DNA from: Ignavibacteriales bacterium
GTDB taxonomy: Bacteria > Bacteroidota > Ignavibacteria > UBA10030
Direction: 5' to 3'
Assembly: GCA_016207415.1 (NCBI GenBank)
Contig: JACQPT010000061.1
Coordinates: 1 to 48,010 of the forward strand
Length of the DNA: 48,010 nucleotides
The position numbers and the translations under genes are program-made. The notes under the pieces were generated by a model. That model ran no database searches. It saw only the letters and a list, made by a program, of their open reading frames with translations, and was not told the DNA's origin. Positions 1-18,593 of this stretch are shown here, piece by piece. How positions within the stretch are numbered: position 1 is the stretch's first letter; the number at the start of each line of letters is the position of its first letter.

Positions 1-2
1 CA

Positions 3-869
3 CTCAACATAGTGACAACACGCGGTTGCCCTTTCCATTGCAATTGGTGTGCAAAACCCATCTATGGGCAGGTTTATCATAGCCGCAGTCCTGAGAATGT
101 GGCCGAGGAAATGGCTTACTTAAGGGAGTTTGTGAAACTTGATCATATTTGGTTCGCAGACGACATTTTTGGACTCAGGCCAGGCTGGACAACAGACTTC
201 GATGAAGTGGTAAACAAGCGAAAAGTCAAGACGCCGTTCAAATGCCTTTCCCGTGTCGACCTTTTGTTAAAGGAAGACAACATTCGGCACCTCAAGAACT
301 CCGGCTGCCAAACCGTATGGGTAGGGGCCGAGTCCGGTTCGCAGAAGATTCTCGACGCCATGGAAAAAGGGACGACCGTCATGCAGATTTATGAAGCCAC
401 GGCGTTGCTGCACTGTGCTGGTATCCGTGTAGGTTTTTTCCTGCAGTTTGGTTATCCCGGTGAAACCAAAACGGATATCGAAAAAACATTGCAAGTGGTC
501 AAGGACTGCAGGCCGGATGAAATAGGTGTATCGGTGTCGTATCCTCTTCCGGGAACAAAATTCCACGAGAGTGTTAAGGCGCAGCTTGGAGAAAAACAAA
601 ACTGGGTTGACAGTCAGGACCTGGAAATGATGTTTGCGGGAGCTTATCAACCGGACTTTTATCGTGTGCTGCACCGCGTTGTTCACAAGAAGTTCAGCTT
701 GTGGAGAGGAATACGAGCGGCGACTGGACTTTTCCAACAACCCTTACGATTTGAGAAAAGGTCACTGCGTTCTATCGCCTCGATGTTCTACCACGGGGTG
801 ACACTTCCCCTCGATCTGCTGAAACTGGAAAAACTCGAACACCTGCCGTCTTCGCATGTCCCCCATTGA
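3..869 (+). CDS. Cobalamin-dependent-type (class B-like) radical SAM protein, 5'-truncated by the window edge
   Basis: Frame is open from position 3 (LNIVTTRG). CxxxCxxC motif TRGCPFHCNWC, plus FADDIF, GAESGSQKIL and YPLPGT motifs typical of B12-binding radical SAM proteins. The B12 domain itself would lie outside the window. Confidence 0.85.
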   Translation, partial: LNIVTTRGCPFHCNWCAKPIYGQVYHSRSPENVAEEMAYLREFVKLDHIWFADDIFGLRPGWTTDFDEVVNKRKVKTPFKCLSRVDLLLKEDNIRHLKNSGCQTVWVGAESGSQKILDAMEKGTTVMQIYEATALLHCAGIRVGFFLQFGYPGETKTDIEKTLQVVKDCRPDEIGVSVSYPLPGTKFHESVKAQLGEKQNWVDSQDLEMMFAGAYQPDFYRVLHRVVHKKFSLWRGIRAATGLFQQPLRFEKRSLRSIASMFYHGVTLPLDLLKLEKLEHLPSSHVPH

Positions 870-1671
870 TGAGCTCCAACGAGCCAGTGTTGAAAAGGCG
901 TTCGATAGTGTCGCGGAGACATTCGAGCGCACGCTCGAAAATGACGCAACGCGACAGTTTCGGAACGAGGTCTACGCAGAAATTGAAACACTGGTTCCCC
1001 GGGGATCATCCGTCCTTGACATCAACTGTGGGATCGGTGTTGACGCCCTCACATTGGCCGAGAAGGGATTCAATGTTGTTGGTGTCGACATCGCGGCGAA
1101 GATGATCGAGGTTGCAAGACAAAGGTCCACAAAACTGAGATTCAACACAGCCGAGTTCCTCGTTGGAAGCTTTGAAGACCTCAGCGGGCTTTCCGGTTGT
1201 ACCTTCGATTTGGTGCTCTCAAATTTTGGAGGTCTGAATTGCGTTCCATCGCTCCAAATCGCGGGTGCGCAGATTGCGGCTATAACACGACAGTCGGGGT
1301 TCTTTATCGCCACAGTCATGCCCCCTTTGTGCTTGTGGGAAGTTTTGGCGGGGATGGCGCGGATGGATTTCAAATCGGCGTTTCGACGGCTGCACACGAG
1401 TGTAATGGCCACGGGATTTCCGGGCGGAACATTTGCCGTCTCCTACTACTCGCCGCACAAGTTCGCCGCCACCATGCGTCAATGGTTCGAAGTCAAGCTG
1501 ATCCGGGGATTCAATGTATTCTCGCCACCGCCACATGCAACGCGATTCCGCACAAGTCATCCCCTCTTCTCCCAATTTCTCGCCGACATCGACAAAAGGG
1601 CAGCGCGCCTTCCACTTGCTCGTTCGATGGGAGACCACTACCTGATGGTTCTCAAGCGGAGGGATCAATGA
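856..1671 (+). CDS. Class I SAM-dependent methyltransferase
   Basis: Motif I variant VLDINCGIGVD, GVDIAAKM, FDLVLSNFGGLNC. Overlaps the upstream gene by 14 nt. Confidence 0.9.
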   Translation: MSPIDELQRASVEKAFDSVAETFERTLENDATRQFRNEVYAEIETLVPRGSSVLDINCGIGVDALTLAEKGFNVVGVDIAAKMIEVARQRSTKLRFNTAEFLVGSFEDLSGLSGCTFDLVLSNFGGLNCVPSLQIAGAQIAAITRQSGFFIATVMPPLCLWEVLAGMARMDFKSAFRRLHTSVMATGFPGGTFAVSYYSPHKFAATMRQWFEVKLIRGFNVFSPPPHATRFRTSHPLFSQFLADIDKRAARLPLARSMGDHYLMVLKRRDQ

Positions 1672-2825
1672 CGATCCAACTCATGAGAAACGTCGACCGT
1701 TTTCTGGGAATCCCACTGTGCTGGCTCACTGGAGCTTTTTACAAAACCTTCTTCGTCGACCAGTGGAGACGTGGAGAACAACCCGCAAGGAAGATCCTCA
1801 TCATAAAATTTTTCGGTTTGGGCAGTATAGTCCTGCTTACACCGGCACTCCAAATGATCAAAAAAAGATACCCACACGCGCGGCTCGCTTTCTTATCTTT
1901 TGCCGCAAATTCTGAACTCCTCGATCGAATCGATCTGATAGACGAAATACACACGATTAATACGACTTCAATCATGGCATTTTGTAGAGACACTGTTCGT
2001 TGCTTTCGGAACTTCTTTTGGGTCGGTTTTGACATCGTATTCGATTTTGAGTTTTTTTCGAAATTTTCCACACTTATTACAGCTCTTACGTTTGCATCTT
2101 GCCGTGCGGGATTTTCCCTCCCTACATTCTGGCGCTCATCAATCTATACTCATCAAATACTTCTCGACAAGCGTGTGCACGTAAAGGATTCGTTTTGTCG
2201 GCTTGTGACTACGGTTACTGGTGAGGAAGAGATTCCTGGTGTCTCACCACCAAGGGTCACCCAAAGGGATGATGAATCTCTTGGAAGTAAAGTAGCTTTC
2301 AGCATTCGCCCTGCTGTCGGGATAAACGTCAACACAGGCGCAACATTTCTTGAGCGCCGCTGGGACATACAAAGATTTGCCGACCTGGTGTCAACTTTGT
2401 CTGTGGATGGAGATTACGAATTCTTTTTTACCGGCTCCCTTGAAGAACGACCTTATGTACAAAAGGCAATTAACCTCACTCGGTGCAGGGAGCGATGTCA
2501 CAATGTTGCAGGTCTTCTGACAATCGGTGAATTATGTGCCCTGTTTCGTAGGCTCGAGATTTTTATTTCAAATGACAGCGGTCCTCTCCATCTCGCAGCT
2601 GTTACAGGAGCCCCTACGATTGGTCTCTACGGCCCCGAATCCCCCATATTCTATGGACCTCTTGGTCCAACCGTTGCCGAAATATATGAGAAAGCACCTT
2701 GTAGCCCCTGCATGAACATCTACCGTGCAAAAGCTTTTCGGTGTCCCTTTGATGCCAAGTGTATGAAAATGATAGAAGTGAAACGTATCCAGCAGGCAGT
2801 GGAATCAATGCTTGTCTCCGTATGA
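1668..2825 (+). CDS. Glycosyltransferase family 9 (ADP-heptose:LPS heptosyltransferase-like)
   Basis: ILIIKFFGLGSIVL, ERRW, ISNDSGPLHLAA, GLYGP and C-terminal CSPC...C...CM. Start placed at ATG 1668 (ATGA overlap with the upstream stop) rather than the ORF-track 1197. Confidence 0.9.
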   Translation: MTIQLMRNVDRFLGIPLCWLTGAFYKTFFVDQWRRGEQPARKILIIKFFGLGSIVLLTPALQMIKKRYPHARLAFLSFAANSELLDRIDLIDEIHTINTTSIMAFCRDTVRCFRNFFWVGFDIVFDFEFFSKFSTLITALTFASCRAGFSLPTFWRSSIYTHQILLDKRVHVKDSFCRLVTTVTGEEEIPGVSPPRVTQRDDESLGSKVAFSIRPAVGINVNTGATFLERRWDIQRFADLVSTLSVDGDYEFFFTGSLEERPYVQKAINLTRCRERCHNVAGLLTIGELCALFRRLEIFISNDSGPLHLAAVTGAPTIGLYGPESPIFYGPLGPTVAEIYEKAPCSPCMNIYRAKAFRCPFDAKCMKMIEVKRIQQAVESMLVSV

Positions 2826-4054
2826 TGCAAAAATGGAAGTATCTGCTTTTCGGCTTGCTGTGTGTGTACCTTCTTTGGCGTGGCATTATCCCCGGCTTCA
2901 CAAAAATCGATTCCGACTTCCCAAACTATTACGTTTCGTCAAAACTGCTGATCGACGGAGGCGGGACAGACTCTCTTTACGAAGATAAATGGTTCCAAAA
3001 ACAAATAGATGCACAAGGTATGCATCAAGAAGGAAAATTCTCCCCCTTTCCGCCTCCGACAGTCTTTCTCTTCATTCCGTTCGCGTGGCTGCCGCCGTTA
3101 GCAGCCCTTCAAGTCTGGACTGTTATCAACATATTGCTGCTTGCCGTTTCGATATGGCTCATCTCACAGATAACGCGCTGGGACTGGATTTGGAGTTCTT
3201 GCTTTCTCTTAGGAAGCGGACACGCCATCATTAATAACTTTCGACTCGGACAGTTTTATCTCGTGATTACCTTCTTGACGCTGGCAGCATATGTCCTTAC
3301 GAGCAAAGAAAGAAACTTTCTGGCCGGGTTCCTGCTTGGTATCGGAGCTGCTTTCAAATACTTCCCCGCGATATTTTTGCCCGCTTACAAAGAAGGGCGT
3401 TACAGGAACGCCATTATAGCATGCGTTATTTCCATTGTCGCCGTCTACTTGCTCAGTATTGCCATCCTCGGAGCGAGCGTTCATCAACAGTTTTTTTCTT
3501 CTGTCTTTGTCCATCATCTATCAGGCGACATTCAGAACCCATTCAGCTTTGTTTTTCAATCCTGGAATGGTTTGTTGAATCGCTTTTTCGTTTTTGATTC
3601 TCAGCTTAATCCCTCTCCAATGATTGATGCGCCTCTCTTTTCAAAACTGATTCTGTATGTGATTTATGGAACTGTTGCCTTGTCCACAGTGTATGCATTT
3701 TTTAAATTGAGGGACGCAGCACATATTGATGAGTTTGCTGCTGAGTTTGCTCTTTTGGGTATAACTGCACTGACGCTTTTACCTGCTTCCGCAACATACC
3801 ACTACTTATTGCTTGCACTCCCTGTGGCATTGCTGCTGACTATCTCGACACCCTGGAGCTTTGAGCAAAAAGCCATCCTGACCCTTTATTTTCTTATCGG
3901 TTTCATTCCGTACGGATTGCTCGGAGAATTCGAAACAAGGGGCTTGTTGGCCGTCCTTGCATTTCCTCGATTATTGTGCATGACCTTGATTTTCTTTTTC
4001 TCCATTAAGTTCATATATGGACTTAAAGTGAAAAAGGTTGTTGAGCCACCATGA
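2822..4054 (+). CDS. GT87/DUF2029-like GT-C membrane glycosyltransferase
   Basis: Polytopic membrane protein with SDFPNYY after TM1, PFPPPT, NFRLGQ, KYFP and HYLL motifs. ATGA overlap at 2822-2825. Confidence 0.8.
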   Translation: MMQKWKYLLFGLLCVYLLWRGIIPGFTKIDSDFPNYYVSSKLLIDGGGTDSLYEDKWFQKQIDAQGMHQEGKFSPFPPPTVFLFIPFAWLPPLAALQVWTVINILLLAVSIWLISQITRWDWIWSSCFLLGSGHAIINNFRLGQFYLVITFLTLAAYVLTSKERNFLAGFLLGIGAAFKYFPAIFLPAYKEGRYRNAIIACVISIVAVYLLSIAILGASVHQQFFSSVFVHHLSGDIQNPFSFVFQSWNGLLNRFFVFDSQLNPSPMIDAPLFSKLILYVIYGTVALSTVYAFFKLRDAAHIDEFAAEFALLGITALTLLPASATYHYLLLALPVALLLTISTPWSFEQKAILTLYFLIGFIPYGLLGEFETRGLLAVLAFPRLLCMTLIFFFSIKFIYGLKVKKVVEPP

Positions 4055-5520
4055 TTGCACTCATTAATCCGACTGCCGCAAATTGGCGTTTCCGAATCCC
4101 GCTTTCGGTGCTTTCACTTGGTGGATCACTCGAAGGCAGTTATGCTTATGAAATCGTCGATGGAAACATCCGGAGGAATCTCCTTGAAACGCTTCCAACG
4201 TTCATTCAAGAGAAAGGCATCAAGTACGTTGGCCTCACCGTTATGCCTGGCCCTCAACTTGTGCAGGCGATACACTTGTCCAAATTGGTGCGTGCACGCT
4301 TTCCAAATGTCAAAATTATCTGGGGCGGATATTTCCCATCACTTCATTCCAGAACCGTTCTTCAATCAGGATACGTTGATTTCGTCATTAGCGGACAGGG
4401 GGAGTTCGCCTTCAAACAGCTGATTGACTCTTGTGAACGTGGAGGCTCCTTAAGCTCTATTAGCGGGCTGTCGTACAAAAATGGAGAAATCCGAAATAAT
4501 TCGAAACAAGATCTTATCGACCCTAACGAGCTTCCTCCTCTTCCCTATTCGAAAGTTTCAATTCCGATGTACGTCGGGCGCACGTTTCTCGGAAGCCGCA
4601 CAATCAATTATCACTCGAGCGTAGGCTGCCCTTTTCTGTGCGGGTTTTGTGCTGTGGCGGCAATTTACAAAGCGCGCTGGCTGGGTTTAACTGCAGAAAG
4701 AATGACCAGCGACCTTCTCTGGTTCAAGAAACACTATGCTGTCAATGCGGTGGAGTTCCACGATAATAACTTCTTCACCTCTGAGAAAAGGGTTTTTGAA
4801 TTTGCCGACCGGATCAAACGAGAGGACATATCTTGGTGGGGCGAGGCTCGTCCCGATACTACGCTGGATTATGATGAAAAAACATGGCGCTTGATGAAAA
4901 AGGCAGGCTTGAAAATGGTGTTCTTTGGGGCCGAATCAAGTTCCGAAAGTGTCCTCCAGTTGATGCACAAAGGAGGCACACAAACCCCGGACACCGTACT
5001 CACCTTAGCGGAAAAAATGAGGGAGGCGGATATTATTCCTGAGTTTTCTTTTGTTCTCGGTAATCCGACGGGCAATGTTACAAATGACGTCGATAAGGAC
5101 ATTCGATTCATCAAACAGGTCAAAAAGATAAACCCTCGGGCTGAAATTATTATCTACACGTACTCACCCGTTTTTTTTGAGGAAGCAGAACTATTCCATG
5201 TTGCTCAAACAAACGGATTTGCTTATCCCGAGAAGCTTGATGACTGGCTAAAACCTGAGTGGCAACGCCATGACCTTCGTAAAAACCCCGTAACCCCGTG
5301 GCTAACAGCGAATCACCATAGGCTCATTAAGGGTTTTGAAAGAGTCCTCAACGCCCGCTATCCCACCGTCTCCGACCTTAAGCTCTCAGGCCTCCAACGG
5401 ACAGTTCTGCAAATGTTTGGTTCGTGGCGGTACAAATTTTCGCTTTACGCCTTCCCTTATGAACTTGCTGCTCTACAGAAGTTTTTTCGCTATCGGCAGC
5501 CAGAAATCGAAGGATTATGA
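4051..5520 (+). CDS. B12-binding domain radical SAM protein
   Basis: N-terminal B12-binding-like region (IPLSVLSL...IIWGGYFPS...GQGE), SVGCPFLCGFC, FFGAES. ATGA overlap. Confidence 0.9.
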   Translation: MIALINPTAANWRFRIPLSVLSLGGSLEGSYAYEIVDGNIRRNLLETLPTFIQEKGIKYVGLTVMPGPQLVQAIHLSKLVRARFPNVKIIWGGYFPSLHSRTVLQSGYVDFVISGQGEFAFKQLIDSCERGGSLSSISGLSYKNGEIRNNSKQDLIDPNELPPLPYSKVSIPMYVGRTFLGSRTINYHSSVGCPFLCGFCAVAAIYKARWLGLTAERMTSDLLWFKKHYAVNAVEFHDNNFFTSEKRVFEFADRIKREDISWWGEARPDTTLDYDEKTWRLMKKAGLKMVFFGAESSSESVLQLMHKGGTQTPDTVLTLAEKMREADIIPEFSFVLGNPTGNVTNDVDKDIRFIKQVKKINPRAEIIIYTYSPVFFEEAELFHVAQTNGFAYPEKLDDWLKPEWQRHDLRKNPVTPWLTANHHRLIKGFERVLNARYPTVSDLKLSGLQRTVLQMFGSWRYKFSLYAFPYELAALQKFFRYRQPEIEGL

Positions 5521-5524
5521 AGTA

Positions 5525-6262
5525 ATGGGCCTTTTGAATCTCTTTCGCATCAGAAAACCTGTCGTCCTTGATCCGCTCGAGGCGTACGAGATCTGGGCTG
5601 AAACGTACGATAATATGGATGATAACGCGCTCATAGCAGCTGAAGCCACGGCTGTCAAATCGATGTTGCCGAAACTGAAGCTCAAAGGAAAACGTATCCT
5701 CGATGCCGGTTGCGGCACAGGCAGGTATCTTCAAATCCTAAAAAACTACCGCCCTCGACTCCTCACTGGGATCGACTTTTCCCAGGCGATGATTGTAAAA
5801 GCAAACAGAAAATTTGCAAACGACCGATTTGTCCACCTCGATGTCTCGTCAATTGAATCGCTGCCTTTCCGATCTGACTTTTTTGACACGCTTCTCTGCA
5901 CATTGGCGCTGGACCATGTCAGGAATCTGCATGCCGGCGTCAAAGAACTTTCGCGGGTTCTCCGGAAAGGGGGAACCGCCATCATTTCCGTTTTTCATCC
6001 ATACGCACACTTGCTGGGCTGGCAACGGACCTTCGCTACAAACAACGGAAATCGAAAACTCTATGCCGTTCGGTATTTCAGCCATCAAGCTTCAGAATAC
6101 TTTAAAGCTATCAAAGACGCAAAATTCGAAATCGAAGAACTTTTTGAGCCCACCATCGATGAAGAAGTCAAACCGTTTTTCGTAAAGGCCGGGAGATTAG
6201 ACCTTTATGAAAAATTCAACAACGCCCCTCTGCTGCTTGTTTTCAGATTGAGCAAGAAATGA
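5525..6262 (+). CDS. Class I SAM-dependent methyltransferase (BioC-like fold)
   Basis: AYEIWAETYD, ILDAGCGTGR, GIDFSQAM, SLPF, RVLRKGG. Start placed at ATG 5525, 4 nt after the upstream stop. Confidence 0.9.
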   Translation: MGLLNLFRIRKPVVLDPLEAYEIWAETYDNMDDNALIAAEATAVKSMLPKLKLKGKRILDAGCGTGRYLQILKNYRPRLLTGIDFSQAMIVKANRKFANDRFVHLDVSSIESLPFRSDFFDTLLCTLALDHVRNLHAGVKELSRVLRKGGTAIISVFHPYAHLLGWQRTFATNNGNRKLYAVRYFSHQASEYFKAIKDAKFEIEELFEPTIDEEVKPFFVKAGRLDLYEKFNNAPLLLVFRLSKK

Positions 6263-7443
6263 ACAGTGGTTATTTGTTGAGAAACGGGACTGTGGTCGGT
6301 GATGAGAAGTGGTTCCCGGCTGACGTCCGCATCCTTGGATGTACCATAGTTGAAATAGGTTCTGGACTGAAGAAGAAAAAGACAGAAACCGAAATTGATT
6401 GTTCCAGATATCTGATCTTCCCGGGCCTCATCAACTCACATGACCACCTCGAATTCAATCTTTTTCCGCGGCTCGGTGAACCTCCGTATCGTAACGCGTA
6501 CGAATGGGGCAATGATCTCCATAGGCGATGGAAACCGGCCATAGAGGCAGTCCAGAAGATTCCGTTGAAGCAACGATTATGGTGGGGGTCGTGGAAGAAC
6601 CTGTTCTCCGGCGTTACAACCGTTGTGCATCACAACCAATACTACAGCAAGTTCCGCGCGCGGTACCCCCTCTCTGTGCTGAGAGACTATTCATTTGCAC
6701 ATTCGCTGCAATTTGACTCCAATATTCATGCTGCTCTCAAAAAGCGCAGGAAAGGAACTCCGTTCATCATTCATCTGGCCGAGGGGATAGACAAGACCGC
6801 GCAGGAGGAGGTGTCTGCATTACAAAACCTCGGCGGACTCGACGAGAGGACAATTGCAGTCCATTGTGTCGGTCTCAAACGCGGCGATGTCGAAACAATA
6901 CGCGAAAAAAAAGCTTCGGTCGTTTGGTGTCCTTCATCAAACATGTACCTTTTTGGTAAAACCGCACGGATTCAGGAATTGCTGCAAGGGGTGCCGGTTG
7001 CCATCGGAACAGACTCCACGCTTACTGGGAGCGTAACGCTCTTTGATGAATTACGTCTTGCAAAAACTGAATCTCGGCTTTCTCCCCAACAACTCTTCAA
7101 GCTTGTAACAGATGCTCCACGCAACATTTTTAATCTTCCTTTTCATGCGGGAAGAATTATAGGAAGAGGAGTGGCGGATTTATTTCTTATTAGCGCTAAT
7201 GGCAAAGATCCTTATGAAAGCCTCTTACAGGCCGAGCCATCCGATATTGCGTTGCTATTCCAGAAAGGTCAGGTGAGGATTTTTGAATCACAGTTAATAG
7301 ATCCACGTCGTCAACGTTACCATCAGAGGATAACGATCATGGGCCGCCAGAAGCTTATCAACGATTCAGAATTTCCGCGTTTCTATAAGACACTCAAACC
7401 GTTCCTCTCGCATTATACCTATTTGAAATCAGATCGCACGTGA
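6259..7443 (+). CDS. Metal-dependent amidohydrolase (deaminase-type)
   Basis: PGLINSHDH (HxH), IHLAEG, VHCVG, WCPSSN and GTDS motifs. ATGA overlap. Confidence 0.85.
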   Translation: MNSGYLLRNGTVVGDEKWFPADVRILGCTIVEIGSGLKKKKTETEIDCSRYLIFPGLINSHDHLEFNLFPRLGEPPYRNAYEWGNDLHRRWKPAIEAVQKIPLKQRLWWGSWKNLFSGVTTVVHHNQYYSKFRARYPLSVLRDYSFAHSLQFDSNIHAALKKRRKGTPFIIHLAEGIDKTAQEEVSALQNLGGLDERTIAVHCVGLKRGDVETIREKKASVVWCPSSNMYLFGKTARIQELLQGVPVAIGTDSTLTGSVTLFDELRLAKTESRLSPQQLFKLVTDAPRNIFNLPFHAGRIIGRGVADLFLISANGKDPYESLLQAEPSDIALLFQKGQVRIFESQLIDPRRQRYHQRITIMGRQKLINDSEFPRFYKTLKPFLSHYTYLKSDRT

Positions 7444-7499
7444 CGCAATTCCCGTATTCTACCGATTTCGCAGGGGCGTACGCATAGCGTCGGACTATT

Positions 7500-8921
7500 A
7501 TGCGATATAAGTGCGCTTTCCCATTGGTTGTATCGATTATTGGCGGAATGCCTCTGCTGAGTAGCTGTGAGAACGGCTTGACGGAAGCTTCGGATTCTTC
7601 TCTTCAACCGAAGGTTGTTTCCTTCGTCGTACAAAACTCTCCCAACAATACGCTCAGTATCATGGCACTTACCAACACGGCGAACGCCTCGCGGGTCAGA
7701 GTGGAATTCGGGATCGATTCGGCGTTGAACGAGACGACGCCTTCCGCCTCCGTACATTCAAATAATGCCATTCTCCCTCTTTTGGGGCTGGTCGCTGAGA
7801 CAAAGTACTTTACCAGGGCCGTTGCAATATCGTCCGATGGCCAGGAAGGTGTATCAGAGATTATAAGCTTTGTTACAGAGACGCCGCCAACGGACATCCC
7901 AAGACTCCTTTTAAGCAACGTGGATGATCCGACGCCCGGATATGTCATGATGGGGTTTTCACGATTCAATTTGATCCAGCCGTTTCATACTTATGTGGGG
8001 ATTTTCAATATCGAAGGAAAACTTGTTTGGTACAGGAGGTTTGAAGGCTCTGTCATTGATATTCAAAAACAGCCGAATAATAACTATACTGTATGCGTGG
8101 CTCCTGCTCCGTTTCAGGCTGCGTTCTATGAACTCGACAATCTTGGGAATGTTCTTCGCACTTACAAAGCTGGCGCGAACAGAGAGACAGATACTCATGA
8201 ATTACGCCTCATTGGTGGCTCTCACGTTTTGTTTGGCCTTGAATACCGTACTATGGACCTTTCCGAATTTACCGGGAAGACAAACGCAATCGTTAAGGGC
8301 TTTCTCATCGAATACTACAGACCGAGAAGATCTCCATTCATTTGGAAAACGTTCGACTATTTGAGTGTAACTGATGCAGTTGTGAACGTCTCATTGACGG
8401 GAAATAATGTCGATCCCTGGCACGGGAATGCGATCGAGATCGATACGGATGATAATTTTCTTGTGTCCTTTCGGCACACCGAAGAGGTCATTAAGATACA
8501 CTCCGTGACCGGGAACATCATATGGCGGCTTGGGGGGAAGAACAACCAATTTCAGTTCATCAATGATCCATGGAATGGGTATTCCCATCAACACGGAATC
8601 CGGCGGCTCGAAAACGGAAATATCATCTTGTTTGACAATGGCAATAATCATCAACCCCGCGAAAGTCGTGCCGTGGAATACCATCTTGATGAGCAAAGCA
8701 AAAAAGCGACTCTCGTATGGGAGTATCGCTCTACGCCGCCACTGTTTTCGTTTGCACTTGGGTTTTCCCAAAGACTTCGCAATGGCAACACGTTTATCAC
8801 GTACGGGAGCATTCCGAGATTCATTGAAGTAGATGCCAGCGGAAAAAAACGCTGGGAAGCTACCTTGGACACCACAGGCCTGTTTGTCTACAGGGCTTTC
8901 CGAATCGATTCCCTGTATTGA
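7500..8921 (+). CDS. Aryl-sulfate sulfotransferase (ASST) family lipoprotein
   Basis: Lipobox-like LLSSC, FN3-like N-terminal region, and ASST motifs DTHEL, WHGNAI, SFRH, WRLGG, HQHG, FDNG, YRA. Confidence 0.8.
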   Translation: MRYKCAFPLVVSIIGGMPLLSSCENGLTEASDSSLQPKVVSFVVQNSPNNTLSIMALTNTANASRVRVEFGIDSALNETTPSASVHSNNAILPLLGLVAETKYFTRAVAISSDGQEGVSEIISFVTETPPTDIPRLLLSNVDDPTPGYVMMGFSRFNLIQPFHTYVGIFNIEGKLVWYRRFEGSVIDIQKQPNNNYTVCVAPAPFQAAFYELDNLGNVLRTYKAGANRETDTHELRLIGGSHVLFGLEYRTMDLSEFTGKTNAIVKGFLIEYYRPRRSPFIWKTFDYLSVTDAVVNVSLTGNNVDPWHGNAIEIDTDDNFLVSFRHTEEVIKIHSVTGNIIWRLGGKNNQFQFINDPWNGYSHQHGIRRLENGNIILFDNGNNHQPRESRAVEYHLDEQSKKATLVWEYRSTPPLFSFALGFSQRLRNGNTFITYGSIPRFIEVDASGKKRWEATLDTTGLFVYRAFRIDSLY

Positions 8922-8922
8922 T

Positions 8923-9954
8923 GTGAACCCCGCGGCCGCTCTTAATACGGTAACAACCCGCAGCTTCACCCTCCCGATTGCAATCCTCTATGTCACGGCT
9001 GGATGCAACCTCAAATGTGTCATGTGTTCCTATCGAGCCCCGCTGCCGCAAGAACTGACCCTCGATGAAATAAGAAAACTCGCCGATGAGCTCTATCATC
9101 TCGGGCTTCGTCATATCGTTTACTCAGGGGGCGAGCCGCTTACACGCAGGGACTTCCCCTCCATCTGTGACGTGTTCAAAGCGCTTGGTGTCAAGCAATC
9201 GCTGCTGACGAATGGTCTCCTGCTACTTAAGCGTTACGACGAAATCCGCCATTACTTTTCGGAGATCATTGTTTCGGTCGACGGCCACAATGCAGAAGTG
9301 CATAACAGTATCCGCGGGATGGACGCCTTTGATCAGATTGTGAAGGGTCTAAGAGCTGTCGTCTCCTCCAACCCCCGTCCAACGATATCCTTGAGAACAG
9401 TCGTCCAACGGAAAAATTTTCAGTGGATCGGCGAGATGGTCAATTTCGCCAAATCGCTGGGGGTCGATCGTATCTCCTTCCTTGCAGCTGATGTGTTATC
9501 CGACAGTTTTCATCGGGATCAATCCAAGGCCGTCGCCGACAAGAGTGAAATCATCCTTTCTTTCGATGAGACATTGGAGTTTCGCGGTTTGATGGAAACG
9601 TTTATAACAGACCACCATTCTGAAATCAGAAGTGGGTTTGTTTCAGAGACGCCGGAAAAACTCTTTCACATTGTGCAGTACTACGAGGCGTTGACAAGCA
9701 GATCAAATTTCCCACGTAATCTGTGCAATGCACCAATGGTCTCTACTGTCATCACCTCGACCGGCGATCTGTTACCGTGTTATTTCCTGGCCAAAGTGGG
9801 CAATGTTCGCACGACAAAAATTGAAGAGCTCCTGAACACTCATGCCTTTCGACAGGTTCGACGAGATGTAGACTCATATGTTCTCGATAGATGTCAGCAA
9901 TGCGTCTGCACCCTCCATATCAGTCCGCTTTCGGCGTTTCTGGATAGATTCTAG
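8923..9954 (+). CDS. Radical SAM protein with SPASM/twitch domain
   Basis: CNLKCVMC, SGGEPL, TNG, SVDG; C-terminal CNAP...GDLLPCY...CQQCVC. Start placed at GTG 8923, 1 nt after the ASST stop. Confidence 0.85.
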   Translation: MNPAAALNTVTTRSFTLPIAILYVTAGCNLKCVMCSYRAPLPQELTLDEIRKLADELYHLGLRHIVYSGGEPLTRRDFPSICDVFKALGVKQSLLTNGLLLLKRYDEIRHYFSEIIVSVDGHNAEVHNSIRGMDAFDQIVKGLRAVVSSNPRPTISLRTVVQRKNFQWIGEMVNFAKSLGVDRISFLAADVLSDSFHRDQSKAVADKSEIILSFDETLEFRGLMETFITDHHSEIRSGFVSETPEKLFHIVQYYEALTSRSNFPRNLCNAPMVSTVITSTGDLLPCYFLAKVGNVRTTKIEELLNTHAFRQVRRDVDSYVLDRCQQCVCTLHISPLSAFLDRF

Positions 9955-9959
9955 CGCCC

Positions 9960-11252
9960 ATGCTAGGACCGGGCATTTCACCTTTATCCGACGGGAAGCA
10001 CACACAGCCAGTTGACCATCGAACGAGGCTGCGTCGAATTCTTCTCGTCATCACTTGTGTGTTTTCCGTGACTTTTTTTCTCGTGCATGGTGGCCGATAC
10101 GTTAGCAGGCTTACAAGCGGATTCGCGGCTTATTACGGTTTCTCCAAAATGCTCCTGGACGGATTACCACTCAGTAATGCCTACGCTTATGAATATTTCA
10201 ACGCACAACTGAGGGAATACGGGTTTACTGGAATCTGGGATATAGAATATAACCTGCCATCAAACTCTTTGCCGTTTTTGCCGTTTGCTTTCCTTTCACC
10301 CCACGCATCAAAAATTGCATGGACCGTAGCTTCTCTGATACTGTATTTGTTGTCGGTGAGAATGCTGTTATTGATTCATGGAATCGAGTGGTGGAGTAAC
10401 TTGGGTTTGTCGGTCATTGCCCTGGCGGCTCTTTGGCGGCCATCATACCATTGCATAGCTCACGGCCAGATGTATTTCCTCGTTCTTTTCTTGTTCACAT
10501 TGGCTTTACGGGGGCTCGTAAGGAAAAGGGTATCCCTCGTTTCAATCCCTCTTGCCTCTGCATTTTTTGCGAAAGGTTATGGCGTTATCAGCATCCTTTG
10601 GCTGATGTTCAATGGAAGAACAAGGATGATGCTCACAACAATCCTGATTGTCGTCGCCGCTATGGTCGTCACGCTTCCGATCATACACTTGGATGCGTGG
10701 GTCACATATTGGAATACAGTGGCGAGTGATTTCGGCTCCCTGGCGAAGAGCGGACGCGTTGCCTACCAGACATTAACCAGCTTGATTCTGCACTTGTTTT
10801 CATACGACTCCCGTTGGCTACCTTCACCCCTGATTGAGCTTCCAACGCACCTGGTGAGATTACTCATTTTCTTAACAAACGTAGGCCTGACAGTTTTTGC
10901 CTTGACCGCCGCACGCTCTAATAACTCATCACTGCTGCCAATCTCCTTCTCAATCGGCATTGCGATAAACGTTGTCACAGCTCCAATGGCAGAGGAATAC
11001 CATTTCGTGCTTGTTCTCCCATTGGCAATTTCCTTTTTATGTTACTTCTTCTCTGAAGAGAACAGCATTGCGAATCTCGATCTTTGGAAAATTATCGTGA
11101 TCGTCTCGATAATCGTTCTTGCGGTGCCAATCGGATACAAGTCATTGCAGGATTCAAGCTTCCCCCTTTATCTGATGGCATACCCAAAACTTTATGCTGC
11201 TCTTTTGCTCATCGTCGGTTCTCTTTTTGCAACAAGGAAAACAAAAACATGA
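9960..11252 (+). CDS. Second GT87/DUF2029-like GT-C membrane protein
   Basis: Same architecture as 2822-4054: GFAAYY, LPFLPFA, GQ, K-x-Y, EEYHFVL, C-terminal AYPKL. Confidence 0.75.
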   Translation: MLGPGISPLSDGKHTQPVDHRTRLRRILLVITCVFSVTFFLVHGGRYVSRLTSGFAAYYGFSKMLLDGLPLSNAYAYEYFNAQLREYGFTGIWDIEYNLPSNSLPFLPFAFLSPHASKIAWTVASLILYLLSVRMLLLIHGIEWWSNLGLSVIALAALWRPSYHCIAHGQMYFLVLFLFTLALRGLVRKRVSLVSIPLASAFFAKGYGVISILWLMFNGRTRMMLTTILIVVAAMVVTLPIIHLDAWVTYWNTVASDFGSLAKSGRVAYQTLTSLILHLFSYDSRWLPSPLIELPTHLVRLLIFLTNVGLTVFALTAARSNNSSLLPISFSIGIAINVVTAPMAEEYHFVLVLPLAISFLCYFFSEENSIANLDLWKIIVIVSIIVLAVPIGYKSLQDSSFPLYLMAYPKLYAALLLIVGSLFATRKTKT

Positions 11253-11455: not shown

Positions 11456-11872
11456 ATGAGCAAAACATACGCCGAACTTGCAAGAGCGGCGCAAAAAGCG
11501 AAAACGTTTGCTCATGCTCCCTACTCAAAATTCCGTGTCGGCGCCGCACTCCTCACAAAAAACGGCAAGGTCTTCACCGGCTGTAATGTCGAGAACAGTT
11601 CCTACAGCCTGACTATTTGCGCTGAGCGGACGGCGATCTTCAAGGCTATTTCAGAAGGCCATCATCGGTTCAAAGCAATAGCCGTTTCATCGGATGACTC
11701 CGGGTTCACTCCTCCCTGTGGAGCTTGCAGGCAAGTCCTCATCGATCTTGCTGGGAACATCGATTTTATCATGGTCAACGCAAAGCAGCAAATGAAAGTC
11801 GTACCTCTTAAGATTCTGCTTCCTTTCGCATTTACTAGCAAGAATCTTCGGCGCTCAAAGAAAAAGAAATAA
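11456..11872 (+). CDS. cdd: Cytidine deaminase
   Basis: APYSKFRVGAA, GCNVEN, CAERTA and PCGACRQ zinc motifs (homotetrameric type). Confidence 0.96.
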   Translation: MSKTYAELARAAQKAKTFAHAPYSKFRVGAALLTKNGKVFTGCNVENSSYSLTICAERTAIFKAISEGHHRFKAIAVSSDDSGFTPPCGACRQVLIDLAGNIDFIMVNAKQQMKVVPLKILLPFAFTSKNLRRSKKKK

Positions 11873-11875
11873 CAC

Positions 11876-12451
11876 ATGGATACATCGGCTTCCCATAGCA
11901 TCCCTCGTGATGTCGGCTGGATCGAGGTTGTGTGCGGCTGCATGTTCAGCGGCAAAACTGAGGAACTCATACGCCGGCTCCGAAGGGCGCAAATTGCAAA
12001 ACAAAAAGTCGCCATTTTTAAGCCGCGCATCGACAAGCGCTACAGTGCCGAACATATCGTATCGCACAGCGACCAATCCCTCGTTTCCACTGTTGTTGAC
12101 GATGCAACGGAAATCTCGAGGCTCGCGGGAGACGCCCAGGTCATCGGCATTGACGAAGGGCAGTTTTTCAAAGCAAATCTCGTGGATGTTTGTGAATCTC
12201 TTGCAAATCAAGGAAAGCGAGTAATTGTTGCCGGCCTGGACCAGGACTATCGTGGAAAACCCTTCGAGCCGATGCCGCAACTTCTGGCCATCGCCGAATA
12301 CATCACCAAAACTCTCGCTATTTGCGTCGTCTGCGGAAATCCAGCAGACAGAACGCAACGCACAACAATCTCAAGTGAACGCGTCGTTGTGGGGGCAAAA
12401 GACATGTATGAAGCACGCTGCCGGCGCTGTCATCAACCCCTGCATGACTAG
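11876..12451 (+). CDS. tdk: Thymidine kinase
   Basis: [12 protein letters not shown]-loop, IDEGQF, AGLDQD, CVVC...CRRC zinc site. Confidence 0.96.
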
Positions 12452-12485
12452 TGTCGATTCTCATTTTCTTCGCAGGACTTGAATC

Positions 12486-13844
12486 ATGACTATTCTCTCT
12501 CTGCTCCAGGGCATTCTCGGTATTGTCGTTCTGTTGGGGATTGCATTTTTGTTTTCCAACAATAAACGAAGAATTAATTGGCGGCTTGTTGGAACGGGCC
12601 TTGCCATTCAAGTCACATTCGGAACACTCGTGATCAAAGGGCATGAGATGGGAGCCGTCTTTTCTCCTCTCGGCTGGCCTAAAGCGCTGTTCGAAAAAAT
12701 TGCGGAAGGATTTGTGGTCATCCTGGGATTTACGACGGACGGAGCCAGGTTCGTCTTCGGCAGCCTCGCAAACAGCCCGGGCAATGAGGGTTCGCTGGGG
12801 TTTTTCTTTGCGTTCCAGGTTTTGCCCACAATTATCTTTTTTTCCTCGCTCATGTCCGTGCTCTATTATCTGGGTGTCATGCAAAAAGTTGTCCAGGGAA
12901 TGGCATGGGTAATGGCGAGATTGATGGGAACCAGCGGGGCCGAATCGCTTTCAAACACAGCGAACATCTTCGTAGGCCAAACGGAAGCGCCTTTGATGAT
13001 TCGTCCGTTTGTCGGCACCATGACAAACTCTGAACTCCTGACCATCATGGTTGGCGGGATGGCGACCATTGCAGGAGGTGTCATGGCGGCGTATGTCCAA
13101 ATGCTTGGTTCTGCCTTCGCTCAGGCACACAGCCTTGGGATTCAAGCCGCTCAGGTGAAGTTTGCAGCTCAACTGCTTGGAGCGAGCATCATGGCTGCTC
13201 CCGCCGCGCTGTTGATCTCAAAGATCATTTTTCCGGAAACCGAAGAACCGGTCACCAAGGGAACGGTAAAAGTAAAGGTGGAAAAAAACGCAACGAACGT
13301 GATCGAGGCGGCTGCCGCTGGAGCCGGTGACGGGCTCCATTTGGCCCTCAACGTCGGAGCCATGCTCCTGGCCTTCATTGCAATGATTAGCCTAGTCAAT
13401 TATCTCTTGAACGCACTTGGCGACATTGCCGGGATTAACTCTTATCTCCAGGCAAATTTCGGCCAGCCGTTGAACCTTCAGGTTATCCTTGGAACATCGC
13501 TCCAGTATTTGGCGCTCGCTATCGGCGTGCCTTCTTCCGAGATTTTCCAATTTGGAAGCCTCTTGGGGACGAAGATTGTGCTGAATGAATTTGTCGCTTA
13601 TCTCGACATGGCTAAACTCATTACCGAGAACAAGCTCGTTTCCGAAAAAGCAATTGCGATGGCCAGCTTCGCACTTTGCGGGTTTGCGAATTTTTCCTCC
13701 ATTGCAATCCAAATCGGCGGAATCAGCCCTATGGCGCCCCACCGTCGAAAGGACCTGGCCGCTCTCGGATTAAGGGCTGTCCTTGGTGGAGCGCTCGCTA
13801 CACTGCTGACCGCCACAATCGCCGGCATCCTTATTGGCGGATGA
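12486..13844 (+). CDS. nupC: Concentrative nucleoside transporter (CNT/NupC family)
   Basis: FFAFQVLPTIIFFS, GQTEAPL, ATIAG, LNEFVAY, LCGFANFSSIAI. Confidence 0.93.
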   Translation: MTILSLLQGILGIVVLLGIAFLFSNNKRRINWRLVGTGLAIQVTFGTLVIKGHEMGAVFSPLGWPKALFEKIAEGFVVILGFTTDGARFVFGSLANSPGNEGSLGFFFAFQVLPTIIFFSSLMSVLYYLGVMQKVVQGMAWVMARLMGTSGAESLSNTANIFVGQTEAPLMIRPFVGTMTNSELLTIMVGGMATIAGGVMAAYVQMLGSAFAQAHSLGIQAAQVKFAAQLLGASIMAAPAALLISKIIFPETEEPVTKGTVKVKVEKNATNVIEAAAAGAGDGLHLALNVGAMLLAFIAMISLVNYLLNALGDIAGINSYLQANFGQPLNLQVILGTSLQYLALAIGVPSSEIFQFGSLLGTKIVLNEFVAYLDMAKLITENKLVSEKAIAMASFALCGFANFSSIAIQIGGISPMAPHRRKDLAALGLRAVLGGALATLLTATIAGILIGG

Positions 13845-13860
13845 GGAAGGGTAAACATTC

Positions 13861-14730
13861 TTGGATGGACGCTCGTTTCAGGAATCCGTCGACTTCATCA
13901 GGTCGAGGTACCAACACCGTCCGGCTGTCGCGTTAATCCTTGGCTCGGGTTTGGGCGATTTTGCCGAGACGCTCAAAACTGAAAGTATCATTCAAGCAGC
14001 TGAGATTCCTTACTATCCTGTCTCCACTGTGCAGGGCCATGCCGGAAGGCTTGTGTTCGGCCAAATAATCCGGGGTCGTAAGTCTTCTCAACGCCTCTTG
14101 GTTTTTCAGGGTCGTGTTCACTTCTACGAGTCGGGCATCCTCGATTCCGTCGTTTACCCTGTTTTGCTCGCTCACAAACTCGGAGCACGAGTTCTCCTTG
14201 TGACGAATGCCGCTGGCGGGATCAATTCGCGTTTTCGTGCGGGCGACTTGATGCTTCTCCGAGACGTGCTGAGTTTCGCCTTTCTACCGCCCTCTCGCTC
14301 AATCAGGAAATCTGGACGTTCAGGAGCAACTAGATCGAGGATCGACGGGAGAACTTTCACACGTTCGTTTGTCAGCGGGGGCGGCTATTTCGACCTGAGG
14401 CTTCAGCGTATCATCCGCTCCGCGGCAAGGAAAGTCTCACTCTCGCTTCAGGAGGGAACATATTGTTGGCTGAGGGGACCGACATACGAAACCGCCGCGG
14501 AAATACGCATGCTCGGCATTCTCGGGGCTGACGCAGTGGGAATGTCCACGGTTCCGGAAATTATCACGGCGAAGCGGCTTGGAATGCGGGTAGCGGCCAT
14601 CTCGCTTATTTCAAATCTTGCCACAGGAATATCGCACCAAAAACTTTCCCACGAAGAGGTAACAGAGACTGGGAACCAGGTGAAGGAAAGTTTTTCAAAT
14701 CTTCTGCAGGAAGTTCTGTTCCGCCTGTAA
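13861..14730 (+). CDS. punA: Purine-nucleoside phosphorylase (trimeric type)
   Basis: ILGSGLG, GHAG, QGRVHFYE, TNAAGG, GPTYET, VGMSTVPE, SNLA, HEEV. TTG start with upstream GAGGAAGG. Confidence 0.92.
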   Translation: MDGRSFQESVDFIRSRYQHRPAVALILGSGLGDFAETLKTESIIQAAEIPYYPVSTVQGHAGRLVFGQIIRGRKSSQRLLVFQGRVHFYESGILDSVVYPVLLAHKLGARVLLVTNAAGGINSRFRAGDLMLLRDVLSFAFLPPSRSIRKSGRSGATRSRIDGRTFTRSFVSGGGYFDLRLQRIIRSAARKVSLSLQEGTYCWLRGPTYETAAEIRMLGILGADAVGMSTVPEIITAKRLGMRVAAISLISNLATGISHQKLSHEEVTETGNQVKESFSNLLQEVLFRL

Positions 14731-14736: not shown

Positions 14737-15159
14737 TTAACGGAAAATCTGGTACAACATCAGATAGATCACCACTCCGGTGACTGAAACATAGAGCCAC
14801 ACGGGGTACGTCCATCTTGCAATTCTTCGGTGAACTTCATAGTTGCCTTTCAGTCCGCGACGAAGTGTGATAATAGCGAGAGGAACAATGAGTGTGGCAA
14901 GGACCGTGTGGGACAGCAGGATCGCGAAATACACTGGCCTTACCCAACCCTCACCCTGAAATGGCTGCGAGCCATGGTGGTAGTGATAGATCAGGTAGGA
15001 TGTGAGGAACAAGCCTGAGAGGATAAACACTGTGATCATACTCTTTCGATGCGCGGGGATGTTTCCTTTTTTCATGAAGTGATGACCGATGACGAGAAAA
15101 GCTGCGCTGCAGGTGTTGAGGAAGGCGTTGAGGAGTGGTAAATCAGAAACGGAGATCAT
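14737..15159 (-). CDS. DUF420 family membrane protein (oxidase-associated)
   Basis: LNAFLN, H-x-K-x-M, FLTSYLIYH, SHTVLA, HRRIARWTYPVWLYVSVTG. Confidence 0.88.
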   Translation of the reverse strand: MISVSDLPLLNAFLNTCSAAFLVIGHHFMKKGNIPAHRKSMITVFILSGLFLTSYLIYHYHHGSQPFQGEGWVRPVYFAILLSHTVLATLIVPLAIITLRRGLKGNYEVHRRIARWTYPVWLYVSVTGVVIYLMLYQIFR

Positions 15160-16046
15160 TACACCTTATCGACTACCATCACGAGCATCAACGTGGGCAA
15201 GTACAGCAAGGACGAAAAGAAAATCCGACGCGAGTATCTATTGGCCAAGGCTTGATGATGCTGATTCAAAGTTGAGAGACGGAAAAGGATTGCATACCAA
15301 AGCAGTCCGAAGCTGAGCAAAAGAGCGGTGACCAGATACAAGCGGCCAGCCAAACCTATCCAGGAAACGCAAAGGCTGACCGCAAGCAATAGAGATGACG
15401 CCACGAGAATGTGAAGGCTGGTTCTCCTCCCCCATTCGTCGATAACGGGAAGCATCCTAAATCCCGCCCGCGCATAGTCTTTCTTATACATCCAGGCAAG
15501 GGACAGAAAGTGCGGAATCTGCCATACGAACAGAATGCCGAAAAGAACCCACGCGTCAACGGTGATTCCATTTCGTGCCGCCGCCCAGCCGACAAAGGTT
15601 GGTAGAGATCCCGGTATAGCGCCAACGAGGGTGTTCCACCACACAACCCGCTTCAGAGGCGTATAGAGAACCAGGTAGGTCACCAACGTCAACGCCGCAA
15701 AGAACGCAGTAAGCAAATTATTGAACGCGGCCAGCACAACAAGGCCTGCGATAGCGATCGAGTTTCCAAAAATCAAAGCCGCCAATGGAGAGATTCTTCC
15801 CGCAGGGAGAGGCCTGCGTTCAGTCCTTTTCATGAGGGCGTCGTATTTACGCTCGAAATACTCGTTCAGTGCTCCCGCCCCACCACCGACGAGAAGCGTT
15901 CCAAAAGCAGCCGAAGAAAGCCGGGTCGTGTCCACGCCGTCCGTGGAAGCAAGATAGAAAGCGCACACTGAGGTGAGAGTGGAGAGTCCAGTAAGCTCTG
16001 GTTTTATTAAATCTATATAACTTCTTATCTGAATGTAGCTTATCAT
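15159..16046 (-). CDS. ctaB: Heme o synthase (protoheme IX farnesyltransferase)
   Basis: DALMKRTERRPLPAG, YTPLKR, GAIPG, WQIPHF, DYARAG. Confidence 0.95.
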   Translation of the reverse strand: MISYIQIRSYIDLIKPELTGLSTLTSVCAFYLASTDGVDTTRLSSAAFGTLLVGGGAGALNEYFERKYDALMKRTERRPLPAGRISPLAALIFGNSIAIAGLVVLAAFNNLLTAFFAALTLVTYLVLYTPLKRVVWWNTLVGAIPGSLPTFVGWAAARNGITVDAWVLFGILFVWQIPHFLSLAWMYKKDYARAGFRMLPVIDEWGRRTSLHILVASSLLLAVSLCVSWIGLAGRLYLVTALLLSFGLLWYAILFRLSTLNQHHQALANRYSRRIFFSSLLYLPTLMLVMVVDKV

Positions 16047-16070
16047 GACTTCATAATGTCAATTATAGAA

Positions 16071-17096: not shown

Positions 17097-17107
17097 AGTA
17101 TGAGAGT

Positions 17108-17145
17108 AAAAAAAGCGATGCCTTCCGTCGAGAGGAAGGCATCGC
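17108..17145 (-). terminator. Intrinsic terminator between coxB and ctaA
   Basis: Perfect 12-bp stem GCGATGCCTTCC (17115-17126) / GGAAGGCATCGC (17134-17145), 7-nt loop, followed by U7 on the minus strand (A7 at 17108-17114). Confidence 0.8.
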
Positions 17146-17169
17146 GCCGTCAAACTCACGCCATAAGGC

Positions 17170-18309: not shown

Positions 18310-18326
18310 GGATGAACGATCTCCTT

Positions 18327-18578
18327 TTAATTCAGACTTGGATAATCAAATGTTCCCTCAACGGTCATCTTCATTCGCTTTCTGAGGTAGACGAAAAAGG
18401 CGCCAAAAAGCGAAAGCAGTCCGCCGGTGATTCCCAGCAGAACGAGAACGGCCATATTCACGCTGTCGTTGGTTTTGCTGGCCTCGCCGGCTCCAAAGCA
18501 GACGGGACAACTCATTACCGCATCGGTGAAAGCAATCAGTGCAACCAGCGAAAAGCCAACCAACGCGAGTTTCTTCAT
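18327..18578 (-). CDS. Small exported/membrane protein with a CxxC motif (oxidase-associated)
   Basis: Strong RBS (GAGGGGAG), signal-peptide-like N-terminus, SCPVCFG, one C-terminal TM helix; in-operon position. Confidence 0.7.
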   Translation of the reverse strand: MKKLALVGFSLVALIAFTDAVMSCPVCFGAGEASKTNDSVNMAVLVLLGITGGLLSLFGAFFVYLRKRMKMTVEGTFDYPSLN

Positions 18579-18593
18579 TGTTCTCCCCTCCTC

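Follow-up and report, generated by a model that had tools for sequence, protein, structure and literature searches.

Surface-polysaccharide loci such as the waa lipopolysaccharide (LPS) core and O-antigen clusters occupy a fixed site between housekeeping flanks, carry a mosaic of glycosyltransferase (GT) and tailoring genes that differs within a genus, and are far more diverged than their flanks, while their borders show a gradient of identity. The left end of a 48,010-bp contig of an Ignavibacteriales bacterium (JACQPT010000061.1; the whole contig is the window below) holds a block of ten co-oriented genes, g01 to g10 (Table 1), which is most likely the larger right-hand part of an island of about 12 genes at a fixed chromosomal site. 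The island shares the above features of waa and O-antigen loci, includes a GT9 gene and belongs to a genome with the Kdo transferase KdtA. However, it differs from them in having three radical S-adenosylmethionine (SAM) enzymes and an ASST-type sulfotransferase, and GT87 enzymes where a WaaL-type ligase would be. Furthermore, Wzx, Wzy, Wzz, an ABC exporter and an initiating transferase are all missing from the window, which therefore does not qualify as a Wzx/Wzy-dependent cluster. We consider it probable that this strain-variable island assembles and tailors a lipid-anchored surface glycan, i.e., an LPS core, an O-chain-like polymer, or another glycolipid or glycoprotein glycan. Such loci are well known; the radical SAM (rSAM) chemistry inside them is not. 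No description of this cassette or of B12-dependent rSAM enzymes in polysaccharide loci was retrieved from the literature, supplements being outside the search.

Several characterized pathways resemble parts of the island. In fosfomycin biosynthesis, the cytidylyltransferase Fom1 adds a nucleotide handle, the B12-rSAM C-methyltransferase Fom3 acts, and the hydrolase FomD later removes the handle. The island would likewise provide a handle before a B12-rSAM enzyme, and some related loci have a YaeI/LpxG-like phosphodiesterase. In contrast to fosfomycin, the nucleotidyltransferase (NTase) of the island has a predicted Pol-beta-type fold with a winged helix and stands in a glycan context; no phosphonate genes are present in the window, and none were noticed among the neighbor families scanned. 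In the caprazamycin pathway, a type III polyketide synthase (PKS) and a 3'-phosphoadenosine-5'-phosphosulfate (PAPS) sulfotransferase form the donor. Cpz4 of this pathway is the closest solved structure to g08 and sulfates a sugar hydroxyl (available part of PMC13426309), whereas g08 is a predicted lipoprotein that, as in E. coli ASST, carries an additional beta-sandwich at its N-terminus, and no genes for donor formation were noted in the window. In gentamicin biosynthesis, where GenK methylates at C-6' (PMC4039129, available part), GenK and GenD1 exemplify B12-rSAM methylation of unactivated sugar carbons with class I methyltransferases alongside. Unlike the island, they act on a diffusible aminoglycoside, and neither was matched in the listed PDB or NCBIfam results. 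Finally, HpnI-HpnK-HpnJ and the archaeal calditol synthase Cds place a B12-type or related rSAM enzyme on a lipid-linked sugar beside a glycosyltransferase, according to the available part of PMC13459092. The island differs in that its scores reach a quarter of the respective cut-off, that it has no HpnI or HpnK counterpart, and that it contains an NTase and methyltransferases.

Location and gene content of the island

The window is an entire contig (C238) of a metagenome-assembled genome of 2.79 Mb in 253 contigs that is 89% complete. Since it starts at a contig end, the block runs past the left edge, as the original prediction had stated. The upstream genes, whose retrieval had been proposed, were found on a second contig, C91. 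The end of C91 is a full-length 495-aa copy of the first B12-rSAM enzyme, B12-rSAM a, with a B12-binding domain and 88% amino acid identity to g01. In front of this copy, a 316-aa gene encodes a predicted winged-helix/NTase protein without a Pfam or NCBIfam match, beyond which lie divergent PASTA, rpe, amidohydrolase and glnA genes. For comparison, seven loci were fetched around the second B12-rSAM gene, B12-rSAM b (g05). In these relatives the order runs from PASTA-rpe through the 316-aa gene, B12-rSAM a, the methyltransferase gene MT1, other genes, B12-rSAM b, again other genes and a SPASM-type rSAM gene to cdd-tdk-nupC and a purine nucleoside phosphorylase (PNP) gene. This shared order implies that the two contigs adjoin, and because it recurs the arrangement of the block is not due to chance.

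The two contig ends overlap (window 1-914 against C91 1-1000, reverse strand) and are not identical. Over window bases 1-100 identity is 97%, and it has dropped to 63-66% by bases 701-900; past the overlap, C91 continues into a diverged MT1 start. A second genome of the same genus (G002) has a contig break within the same gene, B12-rSAM a. No second island copy and no further contig with island genes was found in the assembly. We interpret this pattern as reflecting a population with two island haplotypes and a putative recombination border inside B12-rSAM a.

The core, made up of the NTase gene, B12-rSAM a and MT1, is well conserved among the relatives while the genes between the conserved ones differ in each of the seven loci. 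The NTase-like gene with B12-rSAM a, as well as MT1, occur in six loci each, and the SPASM rSAM gene in five; cdd-tdk adjoins the island in six. GT9 followed by the first GT87 gene (GT87a) was found in two loci, the pair of the second methyltransferase (MT2) and the amidohydrolase in one, the second GT87 gene (GT87b) in one, and ASST in none. Intervening genes include other methyltransferases, a GT29-like protein, GT4, an ABC exporter and a metallophosphoesterase. In G002 the island comprises B12-rSAM a, MT1, GT2, B12-rSAM b, a 549-aa double methyltransferase, ASST and the SPASM rSAM gene; GT2 takes the place of GT9 and GT87a, and the double methyltransferase that of MT2 and the amidohydrolase.

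Between the two genomes, island proteins are 47-73% identical, compared to 85-94% for cdd, tdk and nupC and 64% for PNP. Of 41 related genomes, 20 encode a homologue of B12-rSAM b; the protein shares 62-64% identity with copies from another genus and another family, but only 53-56% with those of its own genus. Judged from these comparisons, the divergence and the allelic content look like those of a surface-antigen locus, and the variability suggests a product exposed to phages, grazers or neighbors. The cdd gene of G002 (locus L120, contig C147, 8478-8883) was matched in two overlapping pieces, which may reflect a frameshift or an assembly error.

Distribution of the conserved core

The block had originally been labeled an orphan cluster, which did not hold, as its genes co-occur elsewhere and the core is kept in at least four phyla. 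Searching an alignment of B12-rSAM a against species-representative genomes yielded at least 600 candidate stretches, at least 587 of them confirmed. Locus statistics were obtained by tblastn over the best 80 of these at least 600 stretches, which come from Ignavibacteria/Bacteroidota, Chloroflexota, Acidobacteriota, Armatimonadota, Dormibacterota and others. Homologues of the NTase gene occur in 55 of the 80 loci and those of MT1 in 53, directly after B12-rSAM a. Lower frequencies were observed for B12-rSAM b (20 loci), a g07-like amidohydrolase (17), the SPASM rSAM gene (11), GT9 and GT87a (10 each) and ASST (0). Within the order, 67 of 151 genomes have B12-rSAM a. Across phyla this enzyme is 47-67% identical to the query, which argues for one common, small substrate. 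Uncultured members of the Ignavibacteria, Chloroflexota and Acidobacteriota carry the core very frequently. Identifying the substrate would probably reveal a new surface sugar modification in abundant soil, sediment and wastewater bacteria, and would also annotate thousands of genes.

The NTase and B12-rSAM a are fused in single open reading frames (ORFs), with the NTase in front, in locus L022 (9032-11476, 814 aa) and in the proteins P0004 (812 aa) and P0005 (801 aa). These fusions show that both partners act together. The 316-aa protein was modeled with a pLDDT of 91.7 as a winged helix followed by a Pol-beta-type nucleotidyltransferase domain. Its fold matches are middling: residues 96-216 match ANT(4') with Z 8.7 and a root-mean-square deviation of 3.0 over 111 residues, the winged helix matches Fur (Z 9.1) and MarR types, and Foldseek gave DrrA, MNT and AadA at E of about 0.01-0.04, with none at E<=0.001. 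Residues G124, D136, D138 and E193 do not vary among 33 sequences. A Pfam search returned no match even at E 0.01, and in the ESM Atlas clusters nearest to the NTase PF01909 is found on 11-25% of members. The family is large, with 7066, 5769 and 3265 cluster representatives (50% identity) at E<=1e-3, 1e-10 and 1e-30, respectively. A complex prediction for the NTase and B12-rSAM a ended with a score of 0.00 and 'no answer', and thus speaks neither for nor against binding.

Long NTase forms of 679-807 aa were also encountered, in which the NTase domain is C-terminal behind 380-500 residues (L083 1947-4268, L101 4667-6706, and proteins P0057, P0147 and P0148); the ORFs in L083 and L101 have no Pfam match. 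In two Chloroflexota loci, a pair of small ORFs that by eye is toxin-antitoxin-like lies between both B12-rSAM genes (L079 11540-12094 and L082 12135-12645), and L085 (5751-6026) has only the first of these ORFs.

Glycan-assembly genes

The prediction of an envelope-glycoconjugate unit, apart from its orphan status, agrees with the glycan neighbors of the core, the pair of polytopic GT87 enzymes and the lipoprotein signal of the sulfotransferase. GT87 proteins g04 and g10 are 25% identical, exceed the PF09594 cut-off of 25 bits and have about 9-11 hydrophobic segments each, as expected for GT-C enzymes. The GT9 protein g03 scores below every LPS heptosyltransferase equivalog cut-off (at best 80.5 bits against 134.6 for heptosyltransferase II). 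By its PF01075 score, far above the cut-off of 22 bits, it is assigned to the GT9 family, a heptosyltransferase equivalog not being reached; it is one of seven GT9 genes in the genome. The presence of KdtA makes LPS plausible.

Approximately 1000 neighboring ORFs of the core were clustered and Pfam was run on the cluster representatives. Among the neighbors, GT4 was found in 24 loci, GT9 in 16 and Wzx in 14, in addition to several Wzy_C clusters and PMT-type GT-C, WecA-type, GT2 and phosphoglucomutase genes. Chloroflexota account for most of the loci in which the core adjoins Wzx, Wzy_C or WecA-type genes. At least one recognized glycan gene is present in 33 of the 42 loci with complete flanks (4 kb or more upstream, 6 kb or more downstream), compared to 7.9% of random 17.5-kb windows of the genome under study with the same seeds and threshold.

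Radical SAM enzymes

None of the three rSAM proteins reaches a curated family cut-off, in agreement with the expectation that they would fall outside characterized families. Their best curated matches are HpnJ, BchE and PhpK, with HpnJ ranking first for B12-rSAM a and second for B12-rSAM b. Against the HpnJ (TIGR03471) cut-off of 577.6 bits, the C91 copy of B12-rSAM a scores 147.9 (E 4e-43), g01 112.6 and g05 87.7; the HpnR scores are 89.4, 61.7 and 59.2 bits against 650. No squalene-hopene cyclase (TIGR01507) match was obtained in the genome, where at 89% completeness the absence is unproven. On scores far under the cut-offs, and with no hopene cyclase detected in this incomplete genome, the hopanoid pathway was rejected.

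PF02310 and PF04055 occur together both in g05 and in the full-length version of g01 on C91, as is typical of class B enzymes, and cobalamin use is predicted for both. The CxxxCxxC cluster motifs are CPFHCNWC in g01 and CPFLCGFC in g05, and the two B12-rSAM enzymes are only 22% identical. Among solved sequences, B12-rSAM a comes nearest to the MCR glutamine C-methyltransferase 9ccb (E 1e-23), AprD4 and OxsB, while B12-rSAM b is closest to CysS and TokK (E about 2e-8).

The third enzyme, g09, has its closest solved sequence in the cytosylglucuronate decarboxylase BlsE (E 2e-13). Its SPASM domain (PF13186) scores 40.4 bits against a cut-off of 21.5, and the radical SAM cysteines are at positions 28, 32 and 35. 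With five C-terminal cysteines (268, 286, 324, 327 and 329), one predicted auxiliary cluster is more likely than two. No curated equivalog was reached by g09, the top NCBIfam match being the sactipeptide maturase StsB (104 bits against 625). A GTG start at 8923 agrees with 343-aa homologues that align from residue 1.

Sulfotransferase and amidohydrolase

The sulfotransferase g08 has the lipobox LLSSC and was modeled (pLDDT 83) as an N-terminal beta-sandwich and a propeller. Its best structural match is Cpz4 (E 3e-21, TM 0.64-0.67, 23% identity; profile E 2e-32), followed by E. coli ASST (E 2e-18); entry 9KF4 among the structure matches was identified through Foldseek. In HMMER alignments, g08 residues H365, H233, H308, N310 and R325 correspond to His436, His252, His356, Asn358 and Arg374 of E. 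coli ASST, and these five are invariant in eight sequences. Thr501 of the E. coli enzyme aligns to a leucine in a weakly aligned stretch. The roles of the catalytic residues in ASST, and the preference of Cpz4 for a sugar hydroxyl over a phenol, are given in the available part of PMC13426309. By fold, catalytic histidine and export signal, g08 is a predicted ASST. The gene occupies the same position in G002, and no cluster homologues were found within 1.5 kb of the ASST orthologues of six other genomes; the tie of g08 to the island thus appears limited to this genus (two genomes). The lipoprotein represents one of few candidate natural roles for the ASST family. ASST-like propeller genes are numerous in the order (52 of 151 genomes); many of them lie in open frames of about 600-1100 aa, and tandem pairs spaced by about 2.5 kb occur frequently.

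The amidohydrolase g07 contains the motifs HDH (61-63), HLAE (172-175), H202 and D252, which we take to be the HxH, HxxE, His and Asp signature of COG0402-type deaminases. It weakly matches 8-oxoguanine, S-adenosylhomocysteine/methylthioadenosine, 5'-deoxyadenosine and aminofutalosine deaminases, with the best equivalog at 72.5 bits against 532, and its PDB matches span only the C-terminal half. In Chloroflexota, a g07 homologue lies directly upstream of B12-rSAM a. Other loci have instead a PNP_UDP_1 protein (seven loci), whose weak matches include HpnG (53.8 bits against 187), or a membrane-anchored TadA-like deaminase (four loci). Searches of the 89%-complete genome for the MTAN, MTAP and DadD families gave no MTAN and only sub-threshold relatives, which is no more than suggestive with regard to 5'-deoxyadenosine handling. 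The TadA/CDA-fold deaminase with an N-terminal hydrophobic segment (L042 14800-15456, also in L044, L060 and L074) is located downstream of MT1, and in two of the four loci it comes after an ABC exporter.

Proposed function and alternatives

For a surface-glycan island, we infer the following substrates, order of steps and product. In the cytoplasm, the NTase would attach a nucleotide handle to a small, universally available sugar-type substrate, B12-rSAM a would then methylate or rearrange an unactivated carbon, and MT1 would add an O- or N-methyl group. Further edits could be made by B12-rSAM b, the SPASM-type rSAM enzyme and MT2. The amidohydrolase would most simply remove the inhibitory by-products 5'-deoxyadenosine and S-adenosylhomocysteine, and may do nothing else. 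GT9 would transfer a sugar on the cytoplasmic face, both GT87 enzymes would draw on polyprenyl-phosphate sugars for chain extension at the outer face of the inner membrane, and the ASST-type lipoprotein would sulfate a sugar hydroxyl in the periplasm. The sugar and nucleoside chemistry of the nearest solved relatives (AprD4, OxsB, BlsE and Cpz4) counts in favor of this scheme.

A more specific proposal, which we put forward tentatively, is that the NTase and B12-rSAM a form a new two-component system making a nucleotide-derived or radically rearranged unit (branched or carbocyclic sugar-like) for surface glycans instead of just C-methylating a sugar, with the three adenine-nucleoside enzymes trimming the base from an adenosyl- or nucleotidyl-bearing intermediate. 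The futalosine enzymes act after MqnE in this manner. HpnG acts after HpnH (available part of PMC13459092), and on a bolder reading by analogy to this pair, g07 would trim an adenosylated intermediate.

Several observations weigh against the surface-glycan interpretation. The overlap of the two contigs could be a recent tandem duplication instead of two haplotypes. The nearest solved relative of B12-rSAM a, 9ccb, acts on a protein glutamine, and HemK/PrmA-like protein methyltransferases occur in some relatives' loci. No recognized glycan gene was found in 9 of the 42 fully flanked loci, and the base-rate control represents one genome, with seeds drawn from the neighborhoods themselves. The window lacks an initiating phosphoglycosyl transferase along with Wzx, Wzy and an ABC exporter, and in other phyla the glycan genes may be directed at another acceptor. 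Several Ignavibacteria loci have the NTase/B12-rSAM pair alone beside a Crp regulator, and the NTase assignment itself is qualified by the lack of a Pfam match and the middling matches of its modeled fold. The three kinds of adenine-nucleoside enzyme never occur in one locus (16, 7 and 4 loci, and none in 53, of 80), a mutual exclusion that is weak since about 2.5 co-occurrences are expected by chance.

Remodeling of a glycolipid head group after the manner of HpnI-HpnK-HpnJ or calditol synthase, i.e., ring contraction to a cyclitol followed by methylation and sulfation, overlaps with the surface-glycan interpretation and predicts a membrane lipid rather than a polymer. The rank of HpnJ among the curated matches of B12-rSAM a (best, 147.9 bits) and b (second), the PNP_UDP_1 genes of some loci in other phyla with their weak HpnG match (53.8 bits), and the pathway logic taken from the available part of PMC13459092 speak for it. 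However, these scores are far below 577.6 (HpnJ) and 187 (HpnG), the genome, at 89% completeness, yielded no hopene cyclase, and Wzx, Wzy-type proteins and multiple glycosyltransferases in related loci indicate an oligo- or polysaccharide, so that we regard a cyclitol lipid as unlikely. Slightly less likely still is that the genes make a diffusible natural product, akin to a nucleoside or an aminoglycoside, in place of an envelope component, which would explain the relatives from antibiotic pathways (AprD4, OxsB, BlsE, Cpz4 and aminoglycoside nucleotidyltransferases), the deaminase-type enzyme and the adjoining nucleoside salvage operon. This operon is, however, a conserved flank, with cdd, tdk and nupC 85-94% identical within the genus. 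Moreover, the two GT-C enzymes and the lipoprotein work outside the cytoplasm, the window contains neither a scaffold-forming enzyme nor an exporter or resistance gene, and the fixed site with allelic content resembles a surface-antigen locus with glycan neighbors across phyla.

That the rSAM enzymes and methyltransferases modify a protein or ribosomal peptide post-translationally, with the winged helix as a peptide recognition domain and the GTs glycosylating the protein, appears highly improbable. Such a role would fit the MCR glutamine C-methyltransferase as the closest solved relative of B12-rSAM a, the HemK/PrmA-like methyltransferases of relatives (one at 88.8 bits against 87) and StsB as the top NCBIfam match of g09 (104 bits against 625). 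However, such matches lie mostly far below the cut-offs, the winged helix matches Fur and MarR types, and the small ORFs between core genes in Chloroflexota appear by eye to be toxin-antitoxin-like pairs and a zinc-ribbon protein. The gaps inside the block, all of 56 nt or less, leave no room for a precursor gene, and a precursor peptide within the block is thereby excluded.

Annotation of the window

Gene calls are based on the ORF listing, Pfam and the curated cut-offs of NCBIfam. The ten co-oriented genes of the original prediction were recovered on the plus strand between 3 and 11252 with the expected Pfam domains, and the four ATGA overlaps at 1668, 2822, 4051 and 6259 were read directly in the sequence. 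At the remaining junctions, g01 and g02 overlap by 14 nt, while gaps of 4 nt (g05/g06), 56 nt (g07/g08), 1 nt (g08/g09, if g09 starts at the GTG) and 5 nt (g09/g10) were counted, followed by 203 nt to cdd. As had been predicted, no PKS, non-ribosomal peptide synthetase or cyclase was detected by a domain scan of the large ORFs of the window. Rfam gave no matches in the window or C91, hence no cobalamin or SAM riboswitch, and a promoter and terminator scan of positions 1-12000 was uninformative, with site counts below those of shuffles.

Table 1. Positions of the block and of other annotated features in the window.
Feature	Position	Strand	Assignment	Match or remark
g01	3..869	+	B12-rSAM a, C-terminal 288 aa	Radical_SAM E 5e-20; 5' end lost at contig edge
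g02	856..1671	+	class I SAM methyltransferase MT1	Methyltransf_31/25/11; conserved core
g03	1668..2825	+	GT9 glycosyltransferase	PF01075 90.7 bits; variable module
g04	2822..4054	+	GT87 (GT-C) membrane glycosyltransferase a	PF09594 96.1 bits
g05	4051..5520	+	B12-rSAM b	B12-binding and Radical_SAM
g06	5525..6262	+	class I methyltransferase MT2	Methyltransf_11 E 2e-21; variable
g07	6259..7443	+	deaminase-type amidohydrolase (TRZ/ATZ, COG0402-like)	Amidohydro_1 (PF01979) 62.4 bits
g08	7500..8921	+	predicted exported ASST-type sulfotransferase lipoprotein	PF05935 86.5 bits
g09	8923..9954	+	rSAM enzyme with partial SPASM/twitch-like domain	alternative start ATG 8833
g10	9960..11252	+	GT87 (GT-C) membrane glycosyltransferase b	PF09594 58.9 bits; variable
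right flank	11456..14730	+	cdd, tdk, nupC, PNP	outside the island
respiratory block	15159..27446	-	heme O/A synthases and aa3-type cytochrome c oxidase subunits in one block	also an 882-aa multihaem cytochrome c and a Rieske/cytochrome b pair
BshC homologue	28048..29712	+	bacillithiol biosynthesis, full length	E 4e-113
right-edge ORF	47195..48010	+	272-aa ORF, open-ended at the contig edge	no Pfam match

The remainder of the window is occupied by housekeeping genes, including the nucleoside salvage operon, the aa3-type oxidase, cytochromes, translation factors and Lnt. In the salvage operon, cdd, tdk and PNP score above the NCBIfam cut-offs, while nupC (392 bits against 442) was named from three Pfam nucleoside-transporter domains.

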